Source: Setoptus koraiensis
Taxonomy: Eukaryota > Animalia > Arthropoda
Assembly (NCBI GenBank): GCA_048013815.1
Contig: CM106586.1
Span: 248,001 to 312,000, forward strand
Length of the DNA: 64,000 nucleotides
Reading direction: 5' to 3'
In this document: piece after piece, positions 14,536 through 57,600 of the stretch
Layout of the letters: every line of letters starts with the position of its first letter
How positions within the stretch are numbered: position 1 is the stretch's first letter
Program-made: the position numbers and the translations under genes
The notes under the pieces: model-generated
Database searches by the model: none
Told to the model about the DNA's origin: nothing
Seen by the model: only the letters and a program-made list of their open reading frames with translations

Positions 14536-16479
14536 CAGGGTGTTTGAACTGACCTGATATGTAAGCACTGTGGAAGGTACGTGCCTTCCACAGTGCATTT
14601 TTCAAAGCACTGCGGAAGGCATATAGCACAGCACATCGCACACGGGTATTTATTTTTCTTGCGCAACTATTTTCTCTCTCTCTGTGCACTGCGCCAAGCC
14701 ATTCTTGCGCAACAGCATGCCTTTCGCTTCTCTGGACTGTTGCACTTCCGTTTTAAGCCTCGGCCACACCCTAGTTTCTCCTTCATTCGTTCTTTGTCTT
14801 CGATTATTATACAGCTATTATTACTATTATAATTATCAATTAAAATAAAGAACATTATTGATCAAAATTAATTCATAAGAAAGAAAAAATCATGGCAGCA
14901 TTTATCAATCTATTTATCACCGTCGCTCTCATCATATTTGCGACTGCAGATGGTACAGAGCGCTGGACCAGACCGCAGAAGGCCGAAATGATGTGGGATT
15001 GAGCGAGAGTCAAAGAATACAAAACCTTGCAGACTCTGTACATACAAAAGAAGAATGCCGGTTTAATAGATTAAGGCCTACCGGACTATCAAACTCTGCA
15101 CCGAATTAAAAACAAATTTCTCACCTTCGGCACTTTCGACGATCGTCGCAAAGGAGTGAATTGCGAAATAGAAGCCTCAAAGATTGCTGCAATTAAAGAG
15201 CTGACCAAAGGTGGACTGTACCCATCAAGCATCCGCAAAATCGCCGCTCATCCGTCTGTCAACCTGACTATTTATATGACGCACAAGATGCTGCGAAGAT
15301 GTTTGAAGATGAAGCCATACCGTCCCAGAACACTGCAATACTTGAATGATAAGCAGCAAGAGCGGTTAGAATTTGCAAACAAAATTATTCAACTCGCTGG
15401 AGGGCGAGCCAGTCTCAATCATGATTATTTCAAGAATATAATATTTACCGATGAATCTTGGTTCAGCACGGACGGCTCTATCAACAAGCAGAACACTGTA
15501 TTCTGGTCTCCATCGAACCCAATGCAGGTCTATGAGCGCGAGATGCATGCAGATAAAGTCATGGTCATAGCTTCCATTGGCTTTGACTACAAGAAAGGAC
15601 CATTCTTTTTCAATGGTAGTGTGACTTCTCAAAGTTATCAGGATATGCTCGACGCGCACCTCTTCTCTGACCCATATATTATTAACGGCTTTGCTCAGAA
15701 GAGGCTTATCTTCATGCAGGATGGGGCTGGTCCGCATACATCTCTTTTGAACAGAGAGTACTTGAATGAGAAAACCGGCGGCCGTTGGCTCGGCAAGTAT
15801 CCGCCCTATCTGTGGTGGCCACCATATTCGCCAGACTTAACACCTATGGATTTCTACTTCTGGGGCGTTCTTAAATCAAAAGTTTACACGCATGATAGAC
15901 CATTTCGCGGTAAACTTGATCTGCTGAAGAGAGTAATCATTGAAGAATTCAACACCATGGACCAATTCGAAATCAATAAAGCTTGTGTCAGCGGGTTTGT
16001 CGACCGGATTGTCGAAGTTATACAAAACGAAGGTGGACACATCGCTCATGATGTGGAGAATCGAAGAACCGATCCAGAAGATTATCTCTACCTAGACCCA
16101 ATAGAGAGCCTCAGGATGGGACTGAACACGATCTCGCTGAGCGATGACCCGCCTGAGGAAATAGAATGTGACGATGACGATGATGATTTCGAAGTAATGC
16201 TGAAGAGGCAAGTAAACATTGAAGTCTTCCACAGAATCTCAGAGCTTTTAGAAAAATTCGACAAAGAAGAAGCGAAGCGATTCAACAAATATAGTAATTC
16301 TTCTGTCATTAATTAATATTAATTATTAATATTTTCAATGTAAAAGAGCCCCAATAAATGCACGAAGATGAGCACAGTGACAGTGCGCTCGTCGTGCAAG
16401 CGCGCAAGCGTGCGCGCCCGCATACCCCCTCTGTGCGAAAATTTCTGAGCCAACATATCACATCAGTTCAGACACCCTG
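14536..16479 (+). mobile_element. Tc1/mariner (rosa-like) DNA transposon, full length
   Basis: TA|CAGGGTGTTTGAACTGACCTGATATG ... CATATCACATCAGTTCAGACACCCTG|TA imperfect TIRs with TA duplication. Confidence 0.9.
14892..16316 (+). pseudogene. rosa-like DD42D transposase, 474 codons, two in-frame stops in the N-terminal part
   Basis: FTDES, FMQDGAGPH and WPPYSPDLTPMDFYFWG motifs; the frame extends from ATG 14892 through TGA 15000-15002 and TAA 15072-15074 into the tracked ORF 15156-16316. Confidence 0.9.
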
Positions 16480-19965: not shown

Positions 19966-22836
19966 ATGTTTCGTACTTCCAATCCTAATACCGCGCCAAA
20001 GAAGATCGGCGATGAAACAGAAGAATACGACCCGAGTACGGGTGACAAATTTGCGGCATCAAATGGAACCGTGATCGTTGATGCTCGAGACCCTGTCTTC
20101 GTAAGACCACAGGATATGATGGTTAGAATGATCATGGTTCCCGAAAAGTTCGGCGGGACACCTAGCCAAGCATGCCAATGGTGGGGTGCTCTGTCAACGA
20201 ATGGGGACCGATCGTGTCATGCAAGCGACTACCGGCTTATCTTGAAAAATCGGCGAGAAATTGGATTATCAATGACGTCGCCGATACTCCAAGCGCTACT
20301 GACTTTGAACTTTTGGAAGAAGCGTTCGTGGAACATAAGATTCCACGAAGACAAAAACATGAGGTCAGAAAAGAGCTCGCAACCAAACGACAACTGGAAA
20401 AAGTTGAACAAATTATGTACGGATTATAATCCGAAGATGTCTGAGGAAGGCAGAATCGATCGCATCATCGATTAATTGCTTCCACATTTCTTTCCTCATA
20501 TTGTTGAGGAGGATTTTTAAACTGTCAAGGACTTAAAACGCAAAGCAGTGAGGCTCGAAGAAGGAATACAGCGAAAAAACGTTGACACGGCTGTTGCGAG
20601 TATCATTCGTAAAACAGTTAATAATAAAAAGTACGGCAAGTCAGAAGGTAGGACTACACATAAGATCGTATGCTATAATTGCAATGGTACAGGCCATATC
20701 AGCAAAGATTGTCCTTCTGAGAGAAAGAAGAGTAGTAAAACCGATGATTCATCGTCTGTACCTAGAGAGATTGACAAAAGCAAAATTACATGCTATGGAT
20801 GTAATCAGACGGGGCACTACAAATCAGAGTGCCGCGTCAAGCCCACTGAGGAGAGGCCGAAAAATGAAACTGAGGTGAAGAGACCAGCAGTTACTTCAAT
20901 CCTGCCTGTCATTCAACCAAAGATGCCGATGGAAAGTTGGAGGCATGGTAGATAGTGGTGCTGCCATCGCGGTTATTCACGAAAGTTTGGCAAATGACTT
21001 GGGTTTGATCATCGTCCAAGACGAAACACCTAGGACGGCTACGGCGGGAAGAAGCGATATGAGCGTTGTTGGAGTAACGTCAGTGAGTCTCGCTATCATC
21101 ATTGACAACACGGAAAAATCGTGTACATGGACTTTGTTGGTAGCAAAGCACATACCGCGCGATCTAATTCTCGGCTACGACATCCTCAGCAAACTGGGCG
21201 TGGTTGCCAAATTCGGCTCAAGCAAGCTTGAGTTCGAAACTGTCGTAAAGAAATATCAAAATGGTGGTGTCTTTTTAAGCGTGCCAACCAAAATTGGAGG
21301 CTACAGCTCGGTCGAAGCAGTAGTAGATTTGGCTGGCGTAGAGAATGAACAAAAAGTATTATTCAAGACGTTCAATAGGGAAGATAAACTGTTAACGCCG
21401 TATGGTATAACAGACGGAAGTAAAGCAAAAATCATACTCACCAACGCCTCAGCGGCCCCAATAGGGCTAAACGAAGGGGAGCGTGTCGGATCTTGGGAAG
21501 ATCACGATGATCACCAGCATCAATACAATGGTGCCATTAGATGAGGAAAATTTAATTGAAGTAGGCGATGATCTTGATCAAGCGCAAACAAATGAGATAT
21601 TGGCTTTGCTTCACGAATACAACGACATTCTAGGTATAAATGGCAAATTGGGCCATACCGACCTAGTAAAGCACTTCATCGAATTAGAGAGCGAAAAGCC
21701 TGTAAAGGTACCACTTAGACGCTATTCTGACAATGAAAAACAGGAAATACGATCGCAAACCAAAGCCATGCTGGAACAAGGCGTTATAACTGGATCGAGA
21801 AGCGCCTACAGTCCTAGTACCGAATAAAGATGGTGGACTTCGATTTTGTTTCGACTACCGTCAGTAAATAAGATCACCCGAAAATGGCCCTTTCCCTGTT
21901 ATTGATATGAATTCGGGCTTCTGGCAGATTGAAGTCGAAGAGAAGCATCGTTACATTACTGCTTTTGCCACACCAGAAGGCCATTATGAGTTTGAGAGAA
22001 TGCCGTTTGGAATGTGCAACGCAGTCAGCACATTTCAGAAAATGGCAGATTCGCTCTTCTGTGGGCTCAAGGGTATAAACTGCATAATATACTTAGATGA
22101 TGCTGCTAATGCCAGTAGCAGCTGGGCCGAACACATAGCCACGTCGAAGGATGTGTTCACACGCTTCAGAGAAGCTGGCCTCACAATAAAATTGTCCAAA
22201 AGTAAGTTTGGAATGAAAGAAATAGATCGGTTGGGACATCATATTAGTGCAGCTGGTTTTAGCCCAATGACCAATAAAATGGAGGCGATAAAGAACATGC
22301 CTTCCCCTCAAAACATTAGCGACATACGGCGTTTCGTGGGAATGTGTTCGTATTATAGAAGATTCGTCCCAAATTTTGCTACCATTTGTGGCCCGCTCTC
22401 AGAGATCACCAAAAAGAACGCCACATGGAGATGGACGGAGTTAGAGGAACACGCACTTGAAGAGATGAAACGGCAACTTATGTCAGATAAATGTGTCGCA
22501 CATTTTAATAGAAGTTTGACTGTTCTATTGAAAGTCGACGCAAGTCGATCTGGCATAGGGGCCATTTTGCTACAAAAGGTAGGCGATTCAGATAAGATGG
22601 TAGCTCGTGTGAGCCGTCGACTGTCCGACTGCGAGAGCCGCTATCCTGTTACAGAACTGGAGGCTTTGTCACTGGTTTTCGCAGTACAGAAATTCCGTCC
22701 TCATTTATATGGTCGTTAAGTGACAGTCCTAACGGACCATTGCGCTTTATGTGCCATCAATCACAAGGTCACTCTCTCACGGAGAATAGCACAATGGCCT
22801 ATTATTCTATCAGAGTTTGACTTAGAGATTAAATAC
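19966..22836 (+). pseudogene. Decayed Ty3/gypsy gag-pol (gag, 2 CCHC knuckles, protease, RT, RNase H), truncated
   Basis: CYNCNGTGHISKDC and CYGCNQTGHYKSEC; VDSGA protease; MPFGMCNAVSTFQ and YLDD in RT; VDAS and ELEAL in RNase H; several frameshifts and stops; ends at a Merlin TIR. Confidence 0.92.
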
Positions 22837-23892
22837 GGGGCTTGTTCGGAAAGACGACACACCCCAATTTGGGTATTTTGGGTATTTTTGGGTAGGGTAT
22901 AGTACCCTGATACCCGAATGGGTATTCCGGAAGTGCGGAAATTCTTCGTTACCGAGATACCCGGGGTACCGCATTGTGGGTATTTCAGGGTATTTGAGGG
23001 CATATCGACGATACAATCGGTCGTACCCACCCGCACGGACATCGGGTAGGGTACTGAGGTCTCCACACCGAGGGTAGATCATTCCTATGAGCCACAGGAA
23101 ATGAATAAAAGCGGTCAAACTGAAGAGGCGTGGCTTGTGCGCGCGGCGCGGAGTGCAACTGCGCCCGCAGATAGTCAGACCACCCACCGAGTCCTAGCGC
23201 GTGCACAATTACTTTTTGCTACCAGTTGCGCGTACTTATTCACGTGTGGACCAGATTCACGTACAGCACACGATCAGCTGTAGTGTGTGCTTGTGCACTA
23301 TGGAAGGCATAGCACACGCTACAGCTGATCGCTCAATGTTGACTAGCGAGGCCAATCAATAGCTATCCTCCCACTCCTACTGTAGCTCAATCACTCAAGC
23401 GCGCACTAATAACTCACACACTAACTCTTTCTTACCCGACAATTAAAACTCCGCATACCCGATAGCGGGTCGACCCAATCTATAAAAAAAAAAATAAACC
23501 CAAAAAGTCATTATAATGACTGATCCACTATCAGGTATGTGGAGTCAAGCTCGACTGTATCGAGAGGCCAGTCTCTCGAACAAGAAAGCTTGCATTGAAT
23601 GGTGTCAGCGAGTAGGCTTGATTCCTTCAATTAAAATGTGCCGAATACACCGGACTCCGTTCCAGCTGGTTGAACAAACACACTTACGGGTATTCGGCCA
23701 TGGTTGGTACTGCAGTAAGTGTCGGAAGAGGGTGGCACTCGGAGTTGGTACTCCATTCGAAAGTTGCCATTCCGACATTGGGCAAGTACTGATGATCGGC
23801 ATGTGCTTCGCAGAGTTAAATACATTAGTGGGGCAGACTCCGCAGATGTTGACTGCCTGTCGAGAGCTGCCGCTAATGGCCTACAAAAAATA
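22837..23892 (+). mobile_element. 5' portion of a transposase-bearing Merlin element
   Basis: GGGGCTTGTTCGGAAAGACGACAC TIR plus a ~230-bp arm matching the end of the MITE at 51198-52053, followed by a Merlin-like ORF. Confidence 0.7.
23516..23892 (+). pseudogene. Merlin/IS1595-like transposase N-terminus (zinc-ribbon region), interrupted
   Basis: CIEWCQRVGLIP..C..H...WYCSKCRKRVALGVGTPFES pattern typical of Merlin/IS1595 N-termini; no DDE part visible; the rest of the tracked ORF is read-through into the inserted element. Confidence 0.7.
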
Positions 23893-24916: not shown

Positions 24917-26777
24917 ATGGGCACACCTCCATCTGTATGTTCGCTCTGACTGATCACAGTCCTGAATTTTCAACTGGTTTTGCTCCCTACTTCTACAGGC
25001 CCCATCCAAACACACTCTATTTGCTCTTATTCTGCTGAGTGTCTCTGTCACATGCGTCGGAGCCGAGCTTCTCCCAAAAGATAAAGCGAGAATCCTCTAC
25101 AATTTCTTCAAACTTGGGGAGAATTTTTGCCAGCTACAGAAACTTTACCAAAACAAAACTTTCGAAGTTGGCCAATTTCCGACGGAACGGAGAACTGTCA
25201 TTGATTGGAAAAAAAATTTTCTCGAGTTTGGCAACGTCAATGCTCCAAGGGGCGGTGCTCGTGAGGAGTTAACAAAAATCACGCCGGAACTTATTGAAAA
25301 AGTTAGAGTGGCCTGCAAAAATGGTACAGTACCAACAAGTACGAGATTGATAGCAGCGGAAGTAGGCCTCAGTAGGTGTACCGTTCACAGAATACTTAGA
25401 TGCAAACTGAAGTTGAAAGGATACCATCCACGCCACCTGCCCCGCCTTTACGGAGCTCAAGAGAAACGTATAGCATTTGCGGAAGCCATCCTTGAACGAG
25501 CGCCCCTTGAAAACGATACTTTCTACGAAAGACTCGTCTTCTCCGACGAGGCTTGGTTCACGACTGGAGGTCACGTGAACAAGCACAACACAGTTTATTA
25601 CGCAGATAAAAACCCGCATCATATTGTGGAGACTGAGTTGCACGCTAAAAAGAAAATGGCCATTGTATTCATCGGTCATTCATTCAGAAGAGGCCCGTTC
25701 TTTTTCGACGAGAATATAAACGCAGATAATTACATAAAAATGCTCCATGAAAAATTCTTTGATAATTCAACGATTCGAACATTCAGAAACCGTCGAAAAA
25801 TTTTCATGCAAGACGGAGCTAAACCGCACTCAGCCTTCAAAACGGTTAACTATTTAAACATGCAAACTGACGGTCAATGGATCGGAATCGGATCCTCCTT
25901 CTTAGAGTGGCCCCCACATTCGCCAGACTTGAACCCCCTCGACTTTTTCCTCTGGGGTCATCTTAAACAGCAAGTTTACCAGCATGGCAGAAGTTTCAGA
26001 GACAACCTGCCGTCTCTCATTAACACAATTGAAAATGAGTTTTGGGATATACTAAGTTTCACGATCGACAAGGCTTGTACGACCGAATTCCATGGTAGAC
26101 TCAAGAAAGTCATCGAACTGAAAGGCGCCGTCGTTTCTCACGCAAGAGAGAATCGAATAACTTCCGAAGATACTTATGCCTTTCTCAATCCAGATTTAGC
26201 TGCACAGCTTGATCCGGAAAATTTGTACGGTATTGATTTCGACCGCCTCTACATTTCGAACCCCCCAGGCACTGTGGTGGAAGACTGGTGCCACTGTAAC
26301 GGAACTTGTCCTAGGTGCTTGGAGCCGCTAGATGATCTTCCGAGCGAACTACGTCCCCTCGATGAACCCTCGCCAGAGAAAAGGCCCCGTCTCGAACGAA
26401 GTGTCGAATTTAGTGATCTTAACGAAACCCAAACATATGGAGACGATGTTGACGAAGTCTGTACGCGCAACTCCACCCAACCCGAAGAAAAGAAGCAAAA
26501 GCGATGCAAAAAATGTCGAAAATGTCGAAGATGTAGGAAGTGTCCGACACAGCGTAAATGTATGAGTTCAAGAGGAGCCACTGCATCGAGGAGGTCACCA
26601 TTTTCTAGATCAAGCTTGATTGCTCGCCTCGCTCTATCTGCCGTTGCCCTTACTCAAAGCCAACACGATGCTTATGAAGAGAGCTATGAGCGAGAAGAGC
26701 TGTTCTCAGACGAACCAAGCACTCATGAAGAGGATGATTATGACTCAAACCACGACCCATGCTGGACGACCCATTAA
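24917..26777 (+). CDS. rosa-like DD42D transposase, predicted two exons (24917-24934, 24999-26777), about 598 aa
   Basis: FSDEA, FMQDGAKPH and WPPHSPDLNPLDFFLWG motifs; stop-free frame from 24966; phase-0 64-nt intron GTATGT...CTGAC...pyrimidine tract...CTACAG links it to ATG 24917. Confidence 0.8.
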
Positions 26778-32633: not shown

Positions 32634-33493
32634 GGTTGTTGTAGCGAATAGCGACCCGCCCCGATTTTGGTGAAACTTCCGGTACGGGTACTTCTTGACC
32701 CCAATAGACCGGAAAAGTTGGTCCGAAAGTGCGGAAACTTCCGGTTCCGGTTTTACATAAAGTTAAAGATAGAGCTCCGAAATTCACCAGAGAGACGTTT
32801 CAAGCTACGCTGAACACGATGAAATAATATTCAGCTCTCTGCAACTTCCGGTTGTCTAGAAATAGAGATATTACAAGGGTTTGAAGACCGGAAGTGACCG
32901 AATTATTGCTTCGCTGCGCTCGGGGATGAACATGCGATGGGTCTGAAAACTCGGCCTGCGGCCTCGTATTCTGGAGGCCGTCACATCTCCGTCGTCGCTC
33001 ACGCGACGACTGCGTGCGACGGGAACCCTTCGGGTAGGGTTGATGAGCGCTTCGGGTATCGGGCTGCGCCCTCTACCCTCCGCTCAGGTGACTGCAATCC
33101 ACACAGGAATGAAGGTGAAAGAACGAACTGGAGACATGTTTTTGGCACAGAAAAAAGGCTGTGCCAGCTTGTGTGATAAATTGCATGAGCCTCTGAGCGC
33201 ACGAATTCATTCAGGCGCGCGGATAGTTCGTCCCGTCGACGCCCTCTCAGCAGTTTTAACCAAATATCTCGTGAACCGGAAGTCGTACAGACTTGAAATA
33301 GACATGATCGTATTCCGCATGCACAGTTTCAGTTATCTAGTGAGTTTCAAATCTGTATCTCAATGTTTTTGTAAAACCGGAACCGGAAGTTTCCGCACTT
33401 CCGGACCACTCAAACTGTTGTCAGGGGGCCCCACGGGCCCGATGTGTAAAGTTTCATCGAAATCTGACTGGGTCGCTATTCGCTACAACACCC
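32634..33493 (+). mobile_element. Merlin-type MITE, family 1 (GAATAGCGACC subtype)
   Basis: Both ends present; almost identical to 45680-46717 apart from that copy's solo LTR; no 8-bp TSD. Confidence 0.85.
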
Positions 33494-34602: not shown

Positions 34603-35018
34603 TGTTAAGATATGTGTCGAAATATAGGCCTAACCATCTATGGTGAAAGTCCATAGATGGGTAGGTAATAAAATTAGTAGACCTAGCTACGAGGTCGAAT
34701 GTAGGGCGAAAGTGTAATAAAAATTAGAGTGCTAAAGAGAGAGAGAGGGAGAGTTAGAGAAGGAGAAAGAGAGTGAAGGAGAGAGAGAGAAAGCAATAGA
34801 ACTGAGTCGAAAAAGAAAAATAGTTAGTTGAAAAAGAGTCGTCGATGCGAGTAGATGAAAAACATAACAAATAAATAAATCAACAAAAAGATAACAAGTC
34901 TCATAGTTTAAATAGCCAACATTTAATATGGGGGTCCGGCAAAAGAACCCAATCAGTTAAGTTAATCAAATAAATTAAATTAATAAGAAGAAATACACTT
35001 CGTATCTTAGTTGGCGGG

Positions 35019-39126: not shown

Positions 39127-42100
39127 GATGCGGCTACACAAATTGGACAGGTTGGCACTTGACTGATTGTTTCATAATAGCAAAAATAATAATCGAAATA
39201 CAAACGTCGGAAAATACTATCATCATTATTAACCAATCATACGCGTATTGATATCATCCAATCACGCTTCTGACATCACCAAGTCGAGATAGCGGACCTG
39301 GTGAACAGCAGATCATTTAAGCACCACACGTTTAGTGAATAATATAGATATATCATATCCAACACTTCTCTCGCACTACATACACACTCTTATCACCCGC
39401 TATCACACCCATTGTACACTCACCTTCGATCTGATTGATTGATTATACTCCGCTGGTTCTAAAGTTTTTGCTAGATTTGTATTGACGAATATACACGATT
39501 TCAGTTGGTTAAAAAATTTTAATGGGGGGAAAATGGACTAATTCCTGGGTTCCTTGGATCTTCCTATCTGTTTCAGCTGGTTATCGAGTTGCTAAACTGG
39601 ATTACTAAAACTTAAACATTTATCAACTGGCTTGGTCAAACAAAAATTCACGACTAAAATAAAATTTGAGTGAACCATCGACAGCGGATAGATCGAGGAC
39701 GATCGGGATGTTCCCCCGGAGGAGGGGGATGTTACGATATGTGTCGAAATATAGTCCTAACCATCTATGGTGAAAGTCCATAGATGGGTAGGTAATAAAA
39801 TTAGTAGACCTAGCTACGAGGTCGAATGTAGGGCGAAAGTGTAATAAAAATTAGAGTGCTAAAGAGAGAGAGAGGGAGAGTTAGAGAAGGAGAAAGAGAG
39901 TGAAGGAGAGAGAGAGAAAGCAATAGAACTGAGTCGAAAAAGAAAAATAGTTAGTTGAAAAAGAGTCGTCGATGCGAGTAGATGAAAAACATAACAAATA
40001 AATAAATCAACAAAAAGATAACAAGTCTCATAGTTTAAATAGCCAACATTTAATACAAGTAAGATCAGAAATCAATTGGTCGTTTTCGAGACAGAGAGAA
40101 ATCGAGGATGACGGATGTCATGTATAGTCATCGATTTCTGAACATGTTCCCACCCATCCGTTTCGATGATACTGCGTGTGTGTGTTGTACATGTTGCTTG
40201 CAACATTTTTTGCTAGTATGACCAGCCATCAATAGGCCGATTTCGAGACAGAAAGAAATTTCGGATGACGGATGTCATGTATAGTCATCGATTTCTGAAT
40301 ATGTTCCCACCTATCCGTTTTGATGATACTCTGTGTGTGTTTTGTGCATGTTGCTCGCAACATTCTGTGCTAGTATGATCAGTCATCAATAGGTCGTTTT
40401 CGAGACAAAAAGAAATTTCGGATGACGGATGTCATGTATCGTCATCGATTTCTGAACATGTAACTCATAATCAATTTTCTGTCTCTAGTATTGGCGCTAT
40501 AGGCCATTCCTGATCAGGTGAGCTCACAATATGTATATGATATCTGATCAGGTATGCCCATACATCACGTGGCATTTTTGAAACTGTTCTCATCCGGATA
40601 AATTCCCGAAGCTTTCTAGAGACAGCTAGCACTGTCTAATACACGATCTGTGCAAGTCTAATTAATTTTCTGTTTCTAGTATTGGCGCTATAGGCCATTA
40701 TTGAGAACATGTGCCTATACAGTATGTGTGATTTTCGATAATGTTCTCACCAGGATAAATTCTCGAAACTTTCTAGAGACAGCTAGCACTTATCACTCCT
40801 TAATATACTGTCCAAACCTCTGAGATCGTTCACTGGAAAAATTAAGCGCTCTTATACTGGTATGATCAGTATAACTTGTTATGTAAAACCGGAACCGGAA
40901 GTTTCCGCACTTCCGGATCACCAAGGTTGTCATTTGCAGACCCTATGGGCCCCGTGTGTGAAGTTTCATTGAAATCAGACTGGGGCACTAATCGCTACAA
41001 CACCCGATTTATCTAGGGTCGAGCCATGCATAGAGAACATACACAGTGTCGTAAACTTGGTCCAATACGGAATCAACGCGACGCTGATGTATTCAATTGC
41101 AAAACAAACAGAATACTCCTAAGCATAGAGAGAGTAATCGTCGAATTCGATAACTTCAAAGTATATGATATCAAGGAGCGTATAGGTGATTACCAGTCGA
41201 AAGAATGGCATGATAAGATATGCATCGTTCTCATTATCGTCAGGGAAATAGCCATGGCCACGCGACGTCAGGCCTGGAGGGATCAACTCGGAATTTTTCT
41301 TCATAATGTGGAAGTAACCGGCATACTCGAACTGTTCCACAAATTCCGACTATGTTGGGAGATAGGCTACAGACACCTAATAACCACGCCCTATATTTAT
41401 AATAAAGTTTTCAACTTATTTATTATCATTTATTCACCTTATTTATCTTCATTTATTTACCTTATTTTCAGATGTACACCCTTGATGCTGAGTTTTTAGC
41501 GCTTAATTTTAATTAAGTTGCTATTGGTTTGGTGTTTATTGCTAATTTATTCACGTGACAATGTAATCCTATGGAGGTTCGACTTAGTCAAATTTGTGAG
41601 AATCCTCAAATTCTGCCTAACATAAAACTGTATTCCTATAGAGATTCGACTCAATCTATTATCGCTTCACTCGAAAATATTTCGTATGCGATCCTATGGA
41701 GATTTGTCTTAGTCGAATTTGTGAGGAGTTCGGTGGTGACAATTGTAACTTCGTAATTCGAAATTGAAAATTCGAATTTCTGATGATAATTACAGCTGCT
41801 CAGTCAGAGTTCGATGGTCAGAGTTCTCAGTTCGATGGTCACAATTCGAACTTCGAAATTCGAATTTCTGATGATAATTTCAGCTGCTCTGTCGGAGTTC
41901 GATGGTCGATGTTCGATGGTCACAATTCGAACTTCGAAATTCGAAATTGAAAATTCGAATTTCTGATGATGATTTCAGCTGCTCTGTCGGAGTTCGATGG
42001 TTAGTGTTCTCAGTTCGATGGTCGAAGTTCGGTGGTCAGAGTTTGATGGTCGATGTTCGATGGTCACAATACGAAGTTTGAAATTGAAAATTCAAATTTC

Positions 42101-43470: not shown

Positions 43471-43970
43471 NNNNNNNNNNNNNNNNNNNNNNNNNNNNNN
43501 NNNNNNNNNNNNNNNNNNNNNNNNNNNNNNNNNNNNNNNNNNNNNNNNNNNNNNNNNNNNNNNNNNNNNNNNNNNNNNNNNNNNNNNNNNNNNNNNNNNN
43601 NNNNNNNNNNNNNNNNNNNNNNNNNNNNNNNNNNNNNNNNNNNNNNNNNNNNNNNNNNNNNNNNNNNNNNNNNNNNNNNNNNNNNNNNNNNNNNNNNNNN
43701 NNNNNNNNNNNNNNNNNNNNNNNNNNNNNNNNNNNNNNNNNNNNNNNNNNNNNNNNNNNNNNNNNNNNNNNNNNNNNNNNNNNNNNNNNNNNNNNNNNNN
43801 NNNNNNNNNNNNNNNNNNNNNNNNNNNNNNNNNNNNNNNNNNNNNNNNNNNNNNNNNNNNNNNNNNNNNNNNNNNNNNNNNNNNNNNNNNNNNNNNNNNN
43901 NNNNNNNNNNNNNNNNNNNNNNNNNNNNNNNNNNNNNNNNNNNNNNNNNNNNNNNNNNNNNNNNNNNNNN
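43471..43970. other. Assembly gap (500 N)
   Basis: Run of N. Confidence 1.
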
Positions 43971-43977
43971 AGGAGCG

Positions 43978-45679
43978 TTGTCTGACCTCACGAAAAAGAA
44001 CGCACAATTCACCTGGGGTGAACGTGAAAAAGAAAGCTTTAATAGTATTAAACAAGGGCTATTAGAAAGCAAGGCCATAGCATATTTTAGGCAAGGTTGC
44101 CCATTAATCCTAAAGACAGACGCATCGCGCAAAGGATTTGCGGCGATACTGCTACAACTGCAGGACGGCGATTGGCGCATAGTAGCGACAGCCAGCAGAC
44201 GGATTTCAACAGGCGAATCAAATGTGAGTGTGACCGAACTAGAAGGAGCGGCGTTAATATACGCATGAATTAAATTCAGACAATTTGTCTACGGATAGAG
44301 AGTGAAAGTAATAGTTGACCATTGTGCTCTCTGCACACTGGGGAAAACCAAACCACTAGAAGGAAGATTAGCTCGCTGGGCTTTAGCCCTATCAGAATTT
44401 TATTTGGATATAGTTTATAGATCTGGAAGACAGCACGCGGACGTTGACTGTTTGTCACGTCAACCTGTGGCTGACCACGACGACAAACTAGACGAGACGA
44501 GATTTATTTTTGCACTAATCCCGTTGGAAGATTACAGATCCAAGTACGATACAGACGAAGAATGCAAAACAGCATTGCAAAAGATTAAACGAGAAGAAAA
44601 CACATTTAAACTAACTAACGGATACATTTATAAAGACAATCGCTTATTAGTACCAACAGAATACAGGAACACATTAATAGACGACATTCATGCACAAGGC
44701 CACGCCGGAGTAAACCAAACAGTAGACCTGGTTCAACGCAAATATTACTGGGCCAGTCTTAAAGACGACATACAAAAGAGAGTAGCAGCCTGCATGACTT
44801 GTCAGAGACATAAAATACCAAGAGAACGTCCAAGCGGATTAATGCATTCATTTGAAAGTCACATGCCATTTGAAGTGATAAGTATGGATCACCTAGGACC
44901 AATGGATGCGACAAGCAAAGGCAATAAGCATGTTCTAGTTGCAATTGACACATTCAGCAAATTTATTATTGCAGCCCCAACTAAATCCACGTGCGCAGAA
45001 GAGGTAGTTAAATTTATCATCAACAATATCATAGCGATACACGGCGTGCCAAATACTTTATTTTCCGATAACGCAAGCGGATTCACCGCAAACCTGACCA
45101 AACAGGTAGTAGAAGCTTTCGGTATAGAGCTTAACCATTCCACTCCATACCACCATAGAGGTAACTCAATTGTGGAACGATCAATACAAACCCTAAAAGA
45201 TAAGATTGCCATTTCCATGGCAGACGCCGACAACACTGAATGGGATGATCATATTGGAATGGTATGTTTAGCCATCAATGCCACGAAACATTCATCGACA
45301 AAATTTAGTCCTTATGAAGTACTATTTGGTAGAAAATTGCGACTACCGAGAGAGGCTAAGGAGGTGTCAGCAGAAACAGAAGTTTATACAGAGTCCCTAC
45401 AAGCAAAATTAGAGCTTATTAGAAGGAACGTAGCAGAAAGCATCCATTCGAGCAACGAGCTATCAAAACAATATTACGACGCGAAGAGGAAGGAAAAGAA
45501 ATTCAGCATTGGTGACGAAGTAATGGTTCACTTCGAGCCAAAGAACGACGCAAAACCGAATAAGCTATCAAGCAACTATCGCGGACCATACGAGGTCATT
45601 GACACGAAGCCTCATGACATCTATAAATTAGAACTGATCGATTCCAAAAAGAAGAAGAAGATAATACTTGCTCACGTTT
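43978..45679 (+). pseudogene. pol: Ty3/gypsy pol: RNase H and integrase (continues at 46725 after the MITE)
   Basis: TDAS and ELEG in RNase H; H..GHAG...C..C zinc finger; ISMDHLGP, SDNA and VERS integrase core; GPY motif; two in-frame stops near 44266-44298. Confidence 0.93.
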
Positions 45680-46717
45680 GGTTGTTGTAGCGAATAGCGA
45701 CCCGCCCCGATTTTGGTGAAACTTCCGGTACGGGTACTTCTTGACCCCAATAGACCGGAAAAGTTGGTCCGGAAGTGCGGAAACTTCCGGTTCCGGTTTT
45801 ACATAAAGTTAAAGATAGAGCTCCGAAATTCACCAGAGAGACGTTTCAAGCTACGCTGAACACGATAAAATAATATTCAGCTCTCTGCAACTTCCGGTTG
45901 TCTAGAAATAGAGATATTACAAGGGTTTGAAGACCGGAAGTGACCGAATTATTGCTTCGCTGCGCTCGGGGATGAACATGCGATGGGTCTGAAAACTCGG
46001 CCTGCGGCCTCGTATTCTGGAGGCCGTCACATCTCCGTCGTCGCTCCCGCGACGACTGCGTGCGACGGGAACCCTTCGGGTAGGGTTGATGAGCGCTTCG
46101 GGTATCGGGCTACGCCCTCTACCCTCCGCTCAGGTGACTGCAATCCACACAGGAATGAAGGTGAAAGAACGAACTGGAGACATGTTTTTGGCACAGAAAA
46201 AAGGCTGTGCCAGCTTGTGTGATAAATTGCATGAGCCTCTAAGCGCACGAATTCATTCAGGCGCGTGTTATACAACATGGCATATCCCATACAAACTCCT
46301 CCCTGTGCGCTCGACGCTACGCCGTCGCCTATTTAAGGCGAGCGCACAGGGAGTAATGGATTCATTCCTGTATCCAGCTACAAATAGAGCATATCTTATA
46401 TATAAAATAACACTACCCGCAATTGCTTATTTCATAACACGCGCGGATAGTTCGTCCCGTCGACGCCCTCTCAGCAGTTTTAACCAAATATCTCGTGAAC
46501 CGGAAGTCGTACAGACTTGAAATAGACATGATCGCATTCCGCATGCACAGTTTCAGTTATCTAGTGAGTTTCAAATCTGTATCTCAATGTTTTTGTAAAA
46601 CCGGAACCGGAAGTTTCCGCACTTCCGGACCACTCAAACTGTTGTCAGGGAGCCCCACGGGCTCCATGTGTAAAGTTTCATCGAAATCTGACTGGGTCGC
46701 TATTCGCTACAACACCC
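45680..46717 (+). mobile_element. Merlin-type MITE inserted in the integrase C-terminus
   Basis: CACGTTT duplicated on both sides (7 matching bases; 8 with one mismatch); removal restores AHVSRLKPY. Confidence 0.92.
46266..46439. mobile_element. 174-bp solo LTR nested in the MITE
   Basis: TGTTAT...ATAACA termini; CGCG 4-bp TSD; absent from the sister MITE copy (empty site at ~33215). Confidence 0.85.
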
Positions 46718-46924
46718 CACGTTTCACGTCTTAAACCATACAAACGTAACGGAGACGAGTCACCCGAACTCGAACGCGTAGTGATTGACCTAGACGAAGA
46801 TATTGATACAGAGGTTAATCAACCTGAAGATACTGATGATCACCAGCATCCGGAGGCAACAAACACAAGAACAGAACAACCACGAACCAGTAGACGAAAA
46901 AAAAATTTTAGACCAACTAACTAC

Positions 46925-48631
46925 ATGAATCTAGTAGCCTCACTGTTGCTCATGACAGCAACCATGAGCAATGGGATTGCATTTGTACCAACTGAATCAG
47001 TCATATGGCAAGAGAGTGTCATAGATGCAGTCAACAAACTGACCCACTATTCCTTAGAGCTACTCGTCGTCAATCCGTGTGACCACTTATTCACAAATAT
47101 CACAGGAAACAAAGTAATTGACGATAATATGATCGACCATTGTAGAACCAAATTCAACGAACAAGTTAAGACACCATTGCAGAGCTTTTGTACAAAATCA
47201 ACGATACCAGAAGATTCACTAAGCAGAGATAAAAGACTGATAGGAGATCTGATAGCAATCGGTATATCATCTACATCGCTCGTCATGGTTAACGATATAA
47301 GAAAACACGATCTACCTTATGTAAAGGATTCGATAAACCAAGTAAGGGAAGTCATCGATAAACAAATGAAATCAGTAGACTTCCTAATCGAAGAATTGAA
47401 AACTGCCAGAGAAGAGCTCCTACAGGAACACCAAACGAACGCCGCAAATGAAGCCGAGCTGTCAGACAGTATTGAACAAGTAAAGACCGATTTGGAGGCA
47501 AGCAGCGAAGCATCATACGTGATGGCTAATGTATTACAGAAGATGAACAGCATGGAATACAACATGCAAGTAGCAAAAGACGCCTGGTTCGATGACAAAA
47601 TAGTGAGAAAAGAGTTATTCGCGTTGATGAACGCACAATCGCACTTCAGCAATGATATTAAGAGGCATGGAAGACCAAGAACATGCAAAGTGCTAGGAAC
47701 CAAATTGCTACTATCATTTACCGCATTCAGGAAGGACAGCACATCATCAGTACTCGAGGCGAATGCCTTTGATCATTTTAACGGTGCAAAAGACAATTTA
47801 TGCACAATGCGATACACCGCACCGACACTTGTTTTAGTGAACGCGTCTACCGACTGTTACAAAGAACTCACCCGTTCTGACATGCAGGTAGGAAACACAA
47901 TTATGACTACATGCATCAAAGAAGAGCCTATTAAACCCCCGGCATGGATCAAAGGGGAATGCATGAACAGAAGCAGCCGTATCGACTTTTACAAAGTGAT
48001 AACAAAAGACGGCTTTAACCATATCTATTGTTACCCATACACCATCAAAACTGATGAAGGAGAAGACAATTGCCCGGCATACCCATTTAAATTGCCAGAT
48101 GATGTGTCTTTCACGACCAACACACACGCTTATATCAGCGAGAGAAAGGAGATAAAGGACGTATGGGACATTAAAATATCAACGGCGAAAATAAATCACA
48201 GACTGAAAACCCAATTCGCACCTTTCATTATAGAACCAATTAACAATGCGAAATTCAAGGACACCTTTCAGATGTTACAAAAACCAGTTGAGTGGATTAA
48301 GGAAGGGCGTTGGAACAACACACTACAGAGCTTCAATCTAGAATTTATTCCCAGTCTTGATTGGATAACAGGCCCTACGAAGTACGTAATTTACGGCGTA
48401 ACGGTAATAGGAATCCTATTCATCATCTCCTTTACTATGCCGATGATTAGACTTTGCACATGGATACTAAGAAGAGCGTACGCACCAATTCTGGCGATAA
48501 TATCGATAGCAAGGATGACTATACGACGTTGTTTTGTTCGACACCAATTACCCATGTATACATCGAACAAACAATCCTTTTATAAGAATCTAACTAGAAC
48601 CTCGCAAACGAAAACGTATCGTTTGTTATAA
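46925..48631 (+). CDS. env: Env-like type I membrane fusion glycoprotein of the gypsy element
   Basis: Signal-like MNLVASLLLMTATMSNG; RDKR at 47225-47236 followed by a hydrophobic peptide; heptad region; Cys-rich ectodomain with N-x-S/T sites; TM YVIYGVTVIGILFIISF; tail ends YRLL. Confidence 0.85.
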   Translation: MNLVASLLLMTATMSNGIAFVPTESVIWQESVIDAVNKLTHYSLELLVVNPCDHLFTNITGNKVIDDNMIDHCRTKFNEQVKTPLQSFCTKSTIPEDSLSRDKRLIGDLIAIGISSTSLVMVNDIRKHDLPYVKDSINQVREVIDKQMKSVDFLIEELKTAREELLQEHQTNAANEAELSDSIEQVKTDLEASSEASYVMANVLQKMNSMEYNMQVAKDAWFDDKIVRKELFALMNAQSHFSNDIKRHGRPRTCKVLGTKLLLSFTAFRKDSTSSVLEANAFDHFNGAKDNLCTMRYTAPTLVLVNASTDCYKELTRSDMQVGNTIMTTCIKEEPIKPPAWIKGECMNRSSRIDFYKVITKDGFNHIYCYPYTIKTDEGEDNCPAYPFKLPDDVSFTTNTHAYISERKEIKDVWDIKISTAKINHRLKTQFAPFIIEPINNAKFKDTFQMLQKPVEWIKEGRWNNTLQSFNLEFIPSLDWITGPTKYVIYGVTVIGILFIISFTMPMIRLCTWILRRAYAPILAIISIARMTIRRCFVRHQLPMYTSNKQSFYKNLTRTSQTKTYRLL

Positions 48632-48640
48632 GGAGGGGGA

Positions 48641-48797
48641 TGTTAGAGATTAGTTGAACATTCTATGTTCATACTTGGCGCAAACTATACTGTGCACACT
48701 TTCTGTGCACATGCACAAACATGTAAACGTGCTCACGCTGTGTATAAATAGCGTGGCACAAGATTCAAATAAACACTTTTACTATTAACTTCTAACA
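48641..48797 (+). repeat. 3' LTR (157 bp) of the env-bearing gypsy element, preceded by its PPT
   Basis: AAGGAGGGGGA then TGTTAGA...TCTAACA; internal TATAAATA and AATAAA. Confidence 0.88.
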
Positions 48798-51157: not shown

Positions 51158-53614
51158 CTATGTAAGCGAAACGTATGATGGTCCAGGTTGAGACATGGGG
51201 TGTTCTTCAGAAAGACGACACACTCCGATTTCGATGAAACTCAACAAATGGGCCCCGAAGGGGCCCCTGAGGACAAATTGAGTGGTCCGGAAGTGCGGAA
51301 ATTTCTACTTCCGGAGATATAGAAAATGCATTTTCCGGGCCTCAGACCTAAAATTTCTGTATGATTGTCTAGATCCACATGCTATCTATGCGATAGCGTT
51401 AAGATAAATCCTCTACATCAACTCGTTCGCGAGATATTCTACAATAAGCGCAAGTCACACTTCCGGTTTTAAAACTGATTCGGCTGTACTACCAACTAGT
51501 TACGGTCTCTAAAGCAAGTTCACACCCTATATAGAAGAAACCCGGCCCGATCACGGGCCCCGCTCATTCGACTCCCAGTCCTCGGGAAGAATCTTTTTCA
51601 GTTAGGTGGCCGTCAGTCGTCCCGCCGGAGGCCGCAGGCCGTAGGCGTGGACGACTGGAGGCCGAACCCTTTCTCCGGCCCGGGCCAAAGATGCATGTCA
51701 GACGGTAGGGCTATTGCCTTGAACCCTGGCCCTGAACCATTATTAGTAGGAGTCCTGGCCGAGGCTAGGACTTTAGGCTTCGCCTGGGGTGTTACTCTTT
51801 TCCGGTAGTACAGATTATGACCTTAGTACCCCACCCGATGTCCGTGCGGGTGAGAACGGCCGACTATACCGTCAATATGCCCTCAAATACCCTAAAATAC
51901 CCTAAAATACCCAGTATGCGGTACCTCGGGTATCTCGGGTACGGGAAATTTCCGCACTTCCGGAATACCCATTCCGGTATCAGGGCATCATATTCTACCC
52001 GATAATACCCAAAATACCCAAATCGGGGTGTGTCGTCTTTCTAAAGAAGCCCCGAGACATGTTTGATCCATATATCTCTGAGTGACATTGCTGCGGCGGA
52101 GGTGGCAAATTAGTTAAGGGTACAGATTCAGCTTTCTTCTTTAGACAATATTTAGTTCTACAATAATATATTATTGAGCTGATCAGTACAATAATGAAGC
52201 AGGTCAGGACAGAACCCAAAGATATCAATATAATATTATTGTTCTGTTTTAAATATTGCACTTGTAGACCTGGTTCACTCAGTTCGACCAAACCAGGGTC
52301 TAACTTACTCACAACTCTCTGTAATTCAGCGATTTTTGTTAGAAAATCTGCAGATGTCTCTAAATGCTTGTCTCTAGTCCAGGCAGCTGTTATGTTTTCT
52401 GATAGTATGTCACTCGATGCCGATACATCTATTGCTTCTGATATGGCATTGGACGAGTCTTCTCCTAATTTCCAAGAAACATCTAATGGTAATTTGAAAA
52501 CGAAAGGTGGACACTTGTGATCCTTACCATTGATATTTATAATGCTGTTGAAACAATAGAAATACGTATGTGTTTTCGTCAGTTTGATCTCATGTGACTT
52601 TCCTATGTGATTTATATCCATCTGACAGGAGTGTGTTGTCCAATCGTTTGCACCTGTCATGAACTGATGATTTGTTTCCTCGCATCTAGTTACCTGATAC
52701 CGATCAACAGCTAAAGTTCTAATTGGTAACGTGCAATTAGCAGTGATATTGTGCACAACATTCTTAGTGCCGGTGTATTCCTTGATGCATGGTGAGCCTG
52801 TAAGGTTGGCATAGATTTTAAACGGATCGGCCTGCAGAATAAAAGTGTTTTTGTCGGTTATCCGGGTGACAAATCGAAGGTGGACCACTCCTGGCTTAAT
52901 AACATGGCATTTTCCTGCATTGGAAGATAGAGGGTCGATGTCACGGAGATCATCGATCATTAAAAATTCACCTAACTCTGGTCCTACTCTGTAGGTCTTC
53001 CATGCAAATTCGACTTGTCTGAGCAGATGTCCTTTCTCTTTGATATCATTTAGTATGGCTGCTGACATCCAAGCTTGCTGTGGAAATGAAATTGCCATGT
53101 CATGTATTTTCTGGGTATTGGAAGTGACTTGTCGAGATATTATCTTGAGTGCATCTGTATGTGCTCTCTGAACCATATAGATCTGATTGGCATGATTGGT
53201 TAATTTTGCAGATTCTTTTTCAACCCTTTCTATTCTTTCTTTCTCGGATGGGTCTTTTGTCACAAACCATCCTCGGACTGTTTCGACTAAACTTGTGACA
53301 ACATATTCGGAAACCATGCCTGCAGCGAATTCTAATTGTCTTTTATCGCGATTGTGTAGATTGCACATATTATTCAGAGGTACGATGATTTCTTCGTCAA
53401 AAAGTCGTTGACACTCATTGTAAACATCGATGTTGTATGCTGCGTTTGGCGTGTTTAGGTTCAAACAAGGCGATTTGACTGCCATTGTTATGTCCCAAAC
53501 TTTCATTCCCAATGGAATTACTTTGTCTGTCTTTCTCCATAAGATATCGGATTCTTGTTTCAATATCTGACTCGATGTCATGGTAACTATTGATAATGGT
53601 GCTATAATACTCAT
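51158..53614 (-). CDS. env: Env-like fusion glycoprotein fused in frame to copia RNase H (MITE in the tail)
   Basis: Hydrophobic ILMSIIAPLSIVTMTSS directly after ADMFTKPL; RDKR at 53339-53350; heptad; Cys-rich ectodomain; TM IILISLGSVLTCFIIVLISSIIYYC; restored end NMSQPGPSYVSLT-stop. Confidence 0.85.
51198..52053. mobile_element. Merlin-type MITE, family 2, complete, in the env cytoplasmic tail
   Basis: TIRs GGGTGTTCTTCAGAAAGACGACAC / GTGTCGTCTTTCTAAAGAAGCCCC; 8-bp TSD GAGACATG. Confidence 0.92.
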
Positions 53615-56600
53615 GAGAATGTTTCTCAATGAAAGGAATTTTGTTTTCGGTAATGGCTTAGTGAACATGTCAGCCAATTGATTTTCTGTGCCAATATATT
53701 CAATTTTGATATCTTCCATCTTCTTTGACTCAATGATGAATTTATATTTTATGTCTATATGTTTGATTTTTGTGCTTATGATCTGATTATCGATGATCTT
53801 TATTGCTGCTTGGTTGTCAATGAATATGTTTGCTGACTGAATTGGATTCTTCAATTCAGTTAATATTTGCTTCAACCAAATTGTCTCTTTTATCGAATGA
53901 CAAGCAGCCACTAGTTCTGATTCAGTTGTCGACAAGGATACTGTAGGTTGGCGTTGACTCTTCCATATAATAGGAGAGTCATTTATCAGACATATTATAC
54001 CAGACGTGGATTTCCTGCTTTCATCATTAGCATAGTCTGCGTCTGAGTAAGTATTTATTGTCAAGGCGTTTATGTTTCTTGAGACTCCTTTTTTATATGT
54101 GATGCCCAATTTAGATGTTCCCTTTAAGTAGCGAAATACTCGCTTGACAGCGACCCAATGTGCATGAGTATGGCAGTGATTAGCTCGACTCAAATATCCT
54201 ACGACAAAAGCCAAATCAGGACGAGTTGCGATCATTGTATACATGAGAGCTCCCACTGCTTCACGGTATGGAACTTTTTCATCAGCGACAGCGTCTTCTT
54301 TGATTTCTATGTACTCACTAATTGGAGTTGCGATACTGTTGCACCCAGACATTCCAAATCTGCTGATGATCTTATTTATGAAGTTTTCTTGCGAAAGAGT
54401 GATCTTGTCATTGCTAATATTTATGTCAAGGCCTAAAAAATAAGTTGCACTCAGCACACGAACTTCAAACTCTTTCTCAAGCTCCATTTGTATCTTCTTC
54501 AAACTTGAGACGCTTGTCGAAGCTAGTAGTATATCATCTACATAGACTGCGATGATTGTGAAGTTCGTGTCTGATCTCTCAAAAAACACACAAGGATCAT
54601 TTTTTTAGTTTAGTCAATTTGTTACTGACTAGAAACCTTGTGAATCTGTCATTCCATTGTTTCGGTGCTTGCTTGAGCCCATAAAGGCTCTTTTTCAACA
54701 AATAAACATCGTTTGGTTTACCAACATGAAACCCTTCTGCTTGTTCCATGTATATGGTTTCTTCTAACTCTCCATACAAAAAAGCAGTTTTTACATCATA
54801 CTGCTTGAGAAACATATTGTAATTTGCAATTAATGTGAACAGCAGGCGGATCGTTTCAATTTTTACTACGGGCGCATATGTTTCTAGATAGTCAATGCCG
54901 TATACTTGAGTGTACCCTTTCGCAACTAGACGCGCCTTGTAGCGCTCTACTTCACCACTTGATGTCTTTTTGACCTTGTAGATCCAGCGACATTTCACTG
55001 CTTTCTGAGATGTTGGTCGACTAACGATGGTCCACACATTGTTTTTATGTAGTGATGACATTTCTTCCTTCATTGCAGTGATCCATTCTGCTCTATTTGA
55101 ACTACTCATGGCACCATCGTATGTAGATGGCTCATTTTCTAGCGTCATTGCCTCATATGCGGCATGTGCACAGTAAGCTCTGCCACTATACGGTAATGAC
55201 AGAGACTCTGATGGTCCTTGGCTGCGTAACTGCATGGATCGTGGCTGATTCGTGGTATTTTCAGCTTCTTGATTTGGAGCCACTGTTTCGATTGAGCTAC
55301 TAAATGATTCATTTGATTCATGTTCGATTTGCTCTAACGAAGACGAATCCAGATTACTATTGAGGCATGAAGTATCGTCGAGTGGTACTGTAGCCACTTC
55401 GCTGTCATTGCCAAGAGTTTGGTCTTCAGAGTTAGTTGACGATGAAACTTCTTCTTCTATGAATATAACGTCTCTTGATGTTTTGATTGACTTCGAGTGA
55501 GGAAAGTAAATTCTATACGTATTATATCTATCAGTGTAACCAACCAAGATCCCAGGTTCCGACCTTGGCTCCCACGCCTTCAAAGACTGATCTGCAATTT
55601 TAAGATAAGCTCGACATCCATAGACTCGCAAATTAGTAACGCTAGGTTTCTGACCATGGAATAATTCATAAGGCGTAACTGACGGATTTCTTGAAGAAAT
55701 CGAACGATTGAGCAAATACACTGCTGTGTTACAGGCTTCTGCCCACAGAAATTGTGGCAACTTTGCACCAATAAGCATAGTTCTGGCTAATTCTTTTACA
55801 CTACGGTTCTCTCTTTCGACTTTACCATTTTGCTCAGGTAAATATGGTGCTGAATATGTCTTATGAATACCTTTTTCATTTAAATATTCGATGAAATTAC
55901 CATTTTCAAACTCTGTACCATGGTCACTATGAAGACATGTGACTTTCTTAGATGAGTACTCGATTTCTGCTACTACCTCTTTAAATACAGATAGCACTTC
56001 TTTCTTGCTTCTGATGAATTTAATGAATCGATAATTTGTATATTCATCAACTAGGAGGACGAAGTAATTGGCTTTTCCTAGAGACTCAACGGACATAGGG
56101 CCACATGTATCTGCATGCAGTTTTCCAAAGCTTTTTGCGCGATCATGGAAGGACTGTTTGTAGCTGACCTTATGATGTTTTCCGATGATACACGTTTCAC
56201 AAGTATTGTTTTCTTTTCCACTGAGGCTTAGTCCTACTACGACATCATTACTTGCCATTTTCGAAAGTCGTTCTTTATTTATATGTCCAAATCTCGAGTG
56301 CCAAGTGGACATACTAACAGAAATATTAGCTTCTCCTTTGATTATTTTCAAATTCAGACGATAGAGATTTTGGTGCATATCACCGGTTACAACCTCTATG
56401 TTATTTTTGTAAATGTAGCATCTTTTTCCTTCGAATATCGTTTTACTACCATGTTCATTGGTATAAGGAACTGAAAACAAATTTGCTCCCAATTCTGGCA
56501 CATGAAGAACGCGCTCCAAGACGAATTTCATAGATGGATTATCGGATCGTTCACATTTTATGCTACCGACCCCAATTGCTGAGATGATTCTGTTTCCACC

Positions 56601-57593
56601 GACTGTGACTTGGATTGGTTCGTTTAATGACTCGTATGTACTGAAGTATGTTTTCTCACATGACATGTGTTCTGTGGCACCACTATCAATGATGAAATCA
56701 GTGCCCGAATTTGTGAAGTTTGCCACTGCAATTAATGCGATTGAGTCATTGCTTTGATTCGTTGAAGATTGTGAATTGTTCTTTTTGCTTTCATTATAGA
56801 TTCGTTTTCTACACTCTGAAATCCAGTGCCCTTTCTTTTTACAATAATTGCACGGAAAACGAGATTTTTTGTTGTTATTTGCAGGCGAATTGCTCTCATT
56901 CTTTGATTGTTTTGGTGGATTCGAATGATGGTTCTTATTATCTTGCTGATGGCTTCGTCTAAAATTCGATGCTTGTTTCGAAGTCGACGCTGTTAGAGCT
57001 TCAGATTTTGAATTTTTGTTCGATCGATTCATTTCAAAGAGTGACTCTTCAAGGAGCAGCCTCGGACTTAATTCATTCATTGTTCGTAGAATTTTCTGAT
57101 CATTGTGCCAACCTGAGATGAAGTTTCTGTACGTGTCACCAAGAGTGTTGACAATTCTTGAGACCATGATTCTCTCATTCATTGGCTCTCCGAGACTTTT
57201 CAATTTGTTGCATAACAATTCAACTTTCGAGATATGTGTAGACATGTCGTCTTTTTCTGATTTTTTGTATGAATATAACTGCTCTCGGAGCATATCTAAT
57301 TGACACTCGCTGTTTTGGTCATAATAACTTTCTAATCGTCTCCAGCATTCAAATGAGGTTCTGCAAGTTGAAACTTTGTCCACCAGATTGAAATCGATGG
57401 ACGTTAATAAAAGGCCGAGTACTTTTGCGTCTACTTCGTCGTAGGCAGCTTTTCTAGCTTGATCGAGACCCGATCCATCGGTTTCGAGTACTAGATACCA
57501 ATTTCTGGCCTTTAGGACGGCATAGACGATAGTTTTCCATGTTGCGAACTTTTCACCCTTAAACACGGGTACCTTTACTTTTGATTCGGCCAT
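53615..57593 (-). CDS. pol: Ty1/copia gag-pol (gag, CCHC, protease, integrase, RT, RNase H) with one +1 homopolymer frameshift at ~54600
   Basis: CNYCKKKGHWISEC, IDSGATEHM, WHSRFGH, SDHGTE, YKARLVAKGY, YVDD, YSDADYA; copia domain order; deleting one A from the A7 run restores KNDPCVF. Confidence 0.96.
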
Positions 57594-57600
57594 AGCGTGT

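Follow-up and report, generated by a model that had tools for sequence, protein, structure and literature searches.

A Ty3/Gypsy element of Setoptus koraiensis with integrase and a predicted F-type envelope in one reading frame, and an envelope family shared with Copia elements

The Gypsy copy and its reading frame

The window considered here is a 64,000-nucleotide stretch from the arthropod Setoptus koraiensis (GenBank assembly GCA_048013815.1, contig CM106586.1, positions 248,001 to 312,000 of the forward strand), and all coordinates below are positions within it. On its plus strand lies the 3' part of a Ty3/Gypsy retrotransposon whose envelope gene (env) follows the integrase gene. The visible part of the element begins with the reverse transcriptase (RT) connection and RNase H (RH) region of a Ty3/Gypsy pol (43971–44298; Pfam RT_RNaseH_2, E 5.7e-20), disrupted by two stops in frame (44266 and 44296), and continues with the end of RNase H and the integrase (IN; 44299–45679), where Pfam recognises the H2C2 zinc finger (Integrase_H2C2, 9e-17), the core (rve, 2e-13) and the start of the SH3-like C-terminal domain (SH3_Tf2-1, 4.5e-5, profile positions 1–48 of 64). 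There the gene is interrupted by a 1038-bp miniature inverted-repeat transposable element (MITE; 45680–46717, no strand assigned), a non-autonomous element with terminal inverted repeats (TIRs) that is flanked by the two copies of a 7-bp target-site duplication (45673–45679 and 46718–46724) and absent from the contigs that span the site. The segment from the right copy of the duplication onwards (46718–46924) is open in the env frame and encodes the last integrase residues, an acidic linker and, from 46889, a basic cluster. It leads into a predicted internal signal sequence (46925–46978; hydropathy 2.06, net charge of +6 upstream, Met 46925 as its first residue), with which a predicted F-type (class I) envelope protein of 568 residues begins (46925–48631, stop codon 48629–48631).

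The initial annotation had placed a polypurine tract and a long terminal repeat (LTR) directly after the env stop, and this stands: the tract (48630–48640) overlaps the stop codon and is followed at once by a 3' LTR of 157 bp (48641–48797, plus strand, TGTTAGA...TCTAACA, with TG...CA ends), so that both marks of a Ty3/Gypsy 3' end are present. No second copy of this LTR was found within the window; the 5' half of the element lies behind a gap of 500 Ns (43471–43970). The order RNase H to integrase, as assigned by Pfam, is that of Ty3/Gypsy (Metaviridae) elements, and the full order protease (PR)-RT-RH-IN is seen in P0152, one of the related proteins described below. As both the window piece and P0152 contain solely Gypsy-type Pfam domains, we rejected a Bel/Pao (Belpaoviridae) identity. 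Owing to the two stops in pol the window copy is dead and has no evident function; a Logan contig from sequencing run X1 shows no differences to the window over the RNase H region and contains both stops. These stops and the hidden 5' half were not mentioned in the initial annotation, nor were the resemblance of the envelope to paramyxovirus F and the presence of the same env family on Copia elements, to which we return below.

The central claim of that annotation was that integrase and env form one reading frame once the MITE is excised, and it is borne out. The integrase frame on the left and the env frame on the right (open reading frame (ORF) 46568–48631) run through the 7-bp repeat in the same codon phase. 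The left flank of the MITE aligns to residues 1040–1496 of P0152 at 63% identity, and for the right flank, translated by itself, the alignment starts at the first residue and covers residues 1495–2078 of the same protein; since this flank reads from the integrase end through the linker into env, the connection is visible without joining the flanks. Between 46718 and 46924 the env frame contains no stop and the other two frames 3 and 11, and at the local base composition a linker of 63 codons would be open by chance with a probability of about 0.03. Natural uninterrupted copies, whose recovery had been proposed as a check, were found among Logan contigs in all four runs examined (from at most three studies). 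These skip exactly 1045 bases, with seven ambiguous letters at the joint, and no stop or frameshift between integrase and env, which was sought in them, occurs in the spanning contigs. The excised span given earlier, 45680–46724, consists of the insertion proper (45680–46717) plus one copy of the 7-bp repeat.

In runs X1 and X2 a single contig of 3664 nt spans both MITE flanks, with 0 and 2 differences to the window, respectively. The independence of the runs is limited, as X1 and X6 represent one sample, X1 may be the source of the window, and the X2 contig shares its 3664-nt length and its depth with that of X1; the joint in X4 has just 31 letters on its short side and low depth. Contig depths were not taken as copy numbers. 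Among the contigs listed, none bridges the MITE insertion junctions in place, and the inserted form is thus without independent confirmation. Integrase and env lie in one reading frame, and natural uninterrupted forms exist. As a separate observation, the match to the integrase ends at 45367 in an X4 contig of higher depth and in a short one from X6, both of which run on into unlike sequence, which suggests another insertion or an env-less derivative.

Further evidence comes from relatives. An integrase-only search restricted to proteins of 806–2300 residues gave 55 matches, five of which bear env; these five are among the six best, and each is one protein of 2,100–2,300 residues. Relatives at 45–63% integrase identity share the same integrase-env junction, the same layout of integrase end, linker and env recurs in P0005, P0049, P0063 and P0152, and full-length relatives with the order gag-PR-RT-RH-IN-env, checked with Pfam, exist. 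In an integrase tree, from which 15 rows were left out and whose relatives are unnamed or rotifer, the window integrase falls within a starred clade of 11 rows, 10 of them with an in-frame env, while other env-fused Gypsy proteins fall outside this clade.

The envelope family, its predicted fold and its occurrence on Copia elements

A full HMMER search with the envelope alone returned 210 matches at E <= 0.001. Two word-index searches with the same query had found no match, a limit of their sensitivity given the HMMER result. The 150 of the 210 matches that were listed and classed by what lies upstream comprise 27 proteins with a Gypsy pol, 47 with a Copia pol, 5 long proteins that could not be assigned, 24 that start at env and 47 fragments without the env start. 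Where the domains are long enough to score, these orders agree with Pfam scans made on 27 and 9 of the proteins. Three proteins annotated from the mite Halotydeus destructor (P0018, P0066 and P0087) have a protease and/or an integrase C-terminus together with env, without a recognisable RT, which suggests internally deleted or mis-predicted elements that would have kept the env fusion.

No Pfam envelope family matches the window env, and neither Gypsy-env nor Baculo_F profiles match it at E values up to 1. Its sequence has the layout of a class I fusogen, with a furin-type site (47225–47236) followed by a hydrophobic segment (1.75), a long heptad helix of 80 residues (about 47345–47590), cysteine-rich β domains with conserved cysteines, and a transmembrane anchor (about 48380–48439) followed by a cytoplasmic tail. 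The furin motif RX[KR]R is present in 50 of 71 env relatives and a C-terminal transmembrane segment in 57 of 66. The AF2 model, built from a 97-row alignment, has a mean confidence (pLDDT) of 79.4 and a pTM of 0.64, with residues 97–147 poorly modelled. When it was compared to known structures with VIA-align, only pneumovirus and paramyxovirus F proteins appeared among the 50 matches listed (best Z 10.3, root-mean-square deviation 6.6 over 314 residues), and the top Foldseek matches were the post-fusion F proteins of respiratory syncytial virus (RSV), Newcastle disease virus and human parainfluenza virus 3, with E values of 1e-8 (1.1e-8 for RSV F). The env profile matches F0 over the region of furin site, fusion peptide, helix and transmembrane segment (E 8.4e-7, ranked second behind a designed coiled coil), and a viral structure library also yields lispivirus G and baculovirus F. 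We predict, on the basis of these models, that the window env folds like paramyxovirus and pneumovirus F and is a class I fusogen. Among predicted structures in the viral library, the top match (E 1.9e-11) is A0A145VUZ2, an uncharacterised protein of an abalone herpesvirus, ranked above the paramyxovirus, lispivirus and baculovirus F proteins.

The same env family occurs on Ty1/Copia elements in the window itself. On the minus strand, 3.4 kb downstream of the Gypsy element, lies a Copia element (52054–57599, or 51995–57599 in a wider delimitation) in which, by Pfam, RT-RNase H and a homologous env share one frame, and contigs span its RNase H-env junction; its gag-PR-IN-RT part (54597–57599) is separated from RT-RNase H and env by a frame break near 54600, and the tail is interrupted by a second TIR insertion (51198–52053) with an 8-bp duplication. 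Its env matches the Gypsy env of the window at E 2e-8, with 21% identity over 420 residues. A decayed second Copia RNase H with the start of the same env family (13507–14536, minus strand, found with tblastn) brings the number of env-bearing elements in the window to three. The frame break near 54600 is also seen in the X1 and X2 contigs, and the low-depth X4 and X6 contigs differ there; after 57615 the contigs have LTR sequence, matching the window from 50980 onward, at a place where the window has unrelated sequence.

In an env tree of 74 rows, from which P0049 and P0063 were left out as their env is too short, the Gypsy or Copia label changes seven times, at least five of these changes being forced by starred branches, and the window Copia env is sister to the Gypsy env of P0071 (36% identity). 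Monophyly of the Copia envs was rejected by the AU test (p-AU 1.3e-20), with seven long or weakly classed rows left out. From these comparisons it is likely that Gypsy and Copia elements have swapped a self-releasing env module several times, the direction and number of the exchanges not being established. We also lean, though only slightly, towards the broader view that mites and related small arthropods harbour an as yet undescribed community of enveloped Gypsy and Copia elements exchanging one portable paramyxovirus-F-like env cassette, always in frame at the end of pol and self-releasing. Caution is called for here by the trees, which are quick LG+G4 reconstructions, unrooted and based on sequences of about 20% identity; by the classing, which used profiles built from 29 of the same env-relative proteins and includes two weak Copia assignments; and by the hosts, which are named for just 3 of 30 proteins looked up, all of them Halotydeus destructor. 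Judged from these three, the window element likely belongs to a mite or a comparable small arthropod.

The pol-env junction and the proposed release of the envelope

A hydrophobic segment marks the junction in 25 of 26 Gypsy fusions (P0066 being left out of this count) and in all 48 Copia fusions, the element of the window included, compared to 79/1100 (7%) and 135/1550 (9%) of random gag/pol windows; upstream of the segment the net charge is positive in 24/26 and 47/48 cases, respectively. Internal signal sequences have this layout, a basic stretch followed by a hydrophobic one with the N-terminal side in the cytosol, as in the polyproteins of several RNA viruses. A methionine close to this segment is rarely kept in the Gypsy fusions (6/26), and 8 of 19, including the close relative P0049, lack any methionine from the integrase end motif up to the segment. 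We rejected Met 46925 as the family-wide start of env on these counts. Of the earlier reading the single frame is upheld; of the two mechanisms that the initial annotation had proposed, release by signal peptidase is the favoured one, and a start at Met 46925 has become less credible as a general rule.

Because the basic-hydrophobic segment is kept and the methionine mostly is not, release by signal peptidase is favoured over an internal start. We consider it probable that the locus is a dead, MITE-interrupted Ty3/Gypsy copy in which integrase and an F-type env form one frame and env would be freed at the internal signal sequence; judged from the sequences, we give the same preference to a single polyprotein from which signal peptidase would release env, with furin activating it afterwards. 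In such a scheme the basic cluster would retain pol on the cytosolic side and the hydrophobic segment would enter the endoplasmic reticulum (ER), signal peptidase would free env into the ER lumen, furin would cut it into two chains and expose the fusion peptide, and the protease of the element or an intramembrane protease would trim the signal stub from the integrase. A module bringing its own release signal could attach to any pol C-terminus, which would explain its repeated movement and why it follows the integrase in Gypsy elements but RNase H in Copia elements.

Several findings speak against this explanation, the fold included, or leave room for other routes. P0156, the sister of the env-fused P0155, has no env in its protein, and the TM-scores of the top F matches in Foldseek are low (0.33–0.37). 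A conserved signal sequence is equally expected if env is made from a spliced or internally started RNA, and we regard it as possible, but unlikely, that the frame is continuous while most env comes from such a subgenomic RNA, spliced to a gag AUG as in Drosophila gypsy or started internally, with the fusion a tolerated read-through or with both routes in use. Splicing is the rule in errantiviruses, as described in the part of PMC4276936 available to us, Met 46925 stands at the signal, and a methionine is close to it in 32 of 48 Copia junctions as well as in the window copy; the linker of the latter contains eight YAG trinucleotides, one of them directly before the signal (its AG ending at 46911), although none has a clear pyrimidine tract; and the 24 of the 150 listed relatives that begin at env may be separately encoded. 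Against this stand the scarcity of methionines near the Gypsy signals given above, the 14 of 47 Copia proteins with no methionine between the pol end motif and the signal, and the many Copia linkers of just 11–21 residues; moreover, if env had its own RNA, nothing would exclude stops from the linkers of 74 proteins whose divergence is at the 50% level.

Two further readings carry much less weight with us than a subgenomic RNA. That env stays joined to pol, or merely tethers the Gag-Pol precursor to the ER, and is no working fusogen appears improbable: the hydrophobicity of the segment that follows the furin site is no more than moderate, the model has low confidence over residues 97–147 and 21 of 71 relatives lack RX[KR]R, but the conserved cysteines, furin site, long helix, transmembrane anchor and whole F-like ectodomain are kept across both superfamilies. 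Hardly credible at all is an open frame that arose by chance or by assembly in the window copy only, an origin we rejected. Its target duplication measures 7 bp where four other insertions checked have 8 bp, and the inserted form is unbridged among the contigs listed; yet the insertion-free form occurs in contigs of up to three studies, and the junction is shared with the relatives at 45–63% integrase identity.

Other elements of the window, known systems and implications

The MITE in the Gypsy element belongs to a family with many copies across the window (2915–63700) that is highly active and polymorphic: the contigs lack the insertions at 45680 and 51198 but have one at about 55451 where the window has none. 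It is about 99% identical to the copy at 32634–33493 apart from an internal length difference, and it has the marks of a MITE, namely TIRs, a target duplication (8 bp at four sites, 7 bp at 45680), many copies and no transposase, the longest Met-started frame being of 143 residues. The copies share a GC-rich internal core with very high contig depth (about 45990–46150). Elsewhere in the window, 1) an LTR-like pair (34603–34902 and 39730–40029, 99% identical), with a polypurine tract, surrounds a 370-residue ORF without pol or env match and is possibly a non-autonomous LTR element, 2) a decayed Gypsy protease-RT-RNase H piece lies at 20879–22869 on the plus strand, its best-scoring relative among the env matches being the env-fused P0007, 3) the ORFs at 15075–16316 and 24966–26777 look by eye like Tc1/mariner DDE transposases, and 4) ARAGORN finds one unrelated tRNA.

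F-type envs on Ty3/Gypsy elements are widespread in metazoans, where they have been termed errantiviruses in a wide sense (Chary and Hayashi, PMC13524379). According to the accessible part of that survey, its elements resemble that of the window in that a Ty3/Gypsy pol precedes an F-like env, which has a furin site, a fusion peptide, a heptad helix and a transmembrane segment; they have three ORFs, however, and the main text, as far as accessible, mentions neither an in-frame, fused or single-ORF env nor splicing, whereas the window env is in frame. The mite entries in it, six in all, belong to two oribatid species for which the order ENV-GAG-POL is reported, all its elements are classed as Ty3/Gypsy, and env mostly stays with pol. 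Drosophila gypsy and the genus Errantivirus share with the window element the LTR, the polypurine tract, the order RT-RH-IN and an env after the integrase with signal peptide, furin site and transmembrane segment, but there env occupies a third ORF, is expressed from a spliced RNA and resembles baculovirus F in sequence (PMC4276936, in part; PMC7879559); the spliced env had been cited in the initial annotation, in agreement with the former source. This strict Errantivirus trait, env as a separate third ORF, is absent at our locus. The bdelloid TelKA is Gypsy-like with a paramyxovirus-F-like env of about 600 residues, as in the window, but in the portion of PMC5408684 at hand that env is described as a separate ORF3 and not reported on Copia.

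Single-ORF elements are known from Bel/Pao: roo has one gag-pol-env ORF, as the initial annotation had stated and as the available text of PMC3087523 confirms, with an F-like env (PMC13524379, in part), and Atlas virus has its envelope, of the phlebovirus-like class II, at the end of a polyprotein of 2828 residues (PMC9094657, in part). Bel/Pao is another superfamily, whereas the elements described here have Gypsy-type or Copia-type pol domains. Among plant elements, sireviruses are Copia elements with an extra envelope-like region after RNase H. The Copia-borne region described here differs from it in being homologous to a predicted F-fold fusogen and in frame. For the Sirevirus ORFs an envelope function is unclear, in the account given by the accessible part of PMC5408684. 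We found no report of an in-frame F-type env on Gypsy elements, nor of an F-type env on animal Copia elements, in the open-access literature, although subscription papers, RepBase and the sequences deposited on GitHub by the survey may hold cases. Already known, then, are F-type envs on Gypsy elements and single-ORF Bel/Pao elements, and it is for the in-frame Gypsy F-type env and the animal Copia F-type env that no report was found.

It is by capturing an env that a retrotransposon becomes a retrovirus-like agent. By the polyprotein route, Gag, Pol and Env would be made in a ratio of 1:1:1 and anchored at the ER. In contrast to the picture in the survey, where env is mostly tied to a Gypsy pol, one F-type env family would have crossed the divide between Gypsy and Copia at least several times, which provides a testable model for the movement of env modules and, as far as the predicted fold holds, a concrete case of an animal Copia element with a viral-type fusogen. 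If the portable cassette is real, there would be single-ORF gag-pol-env genomes in both superfamilies, and animal Copia elements would be potentially infectious.

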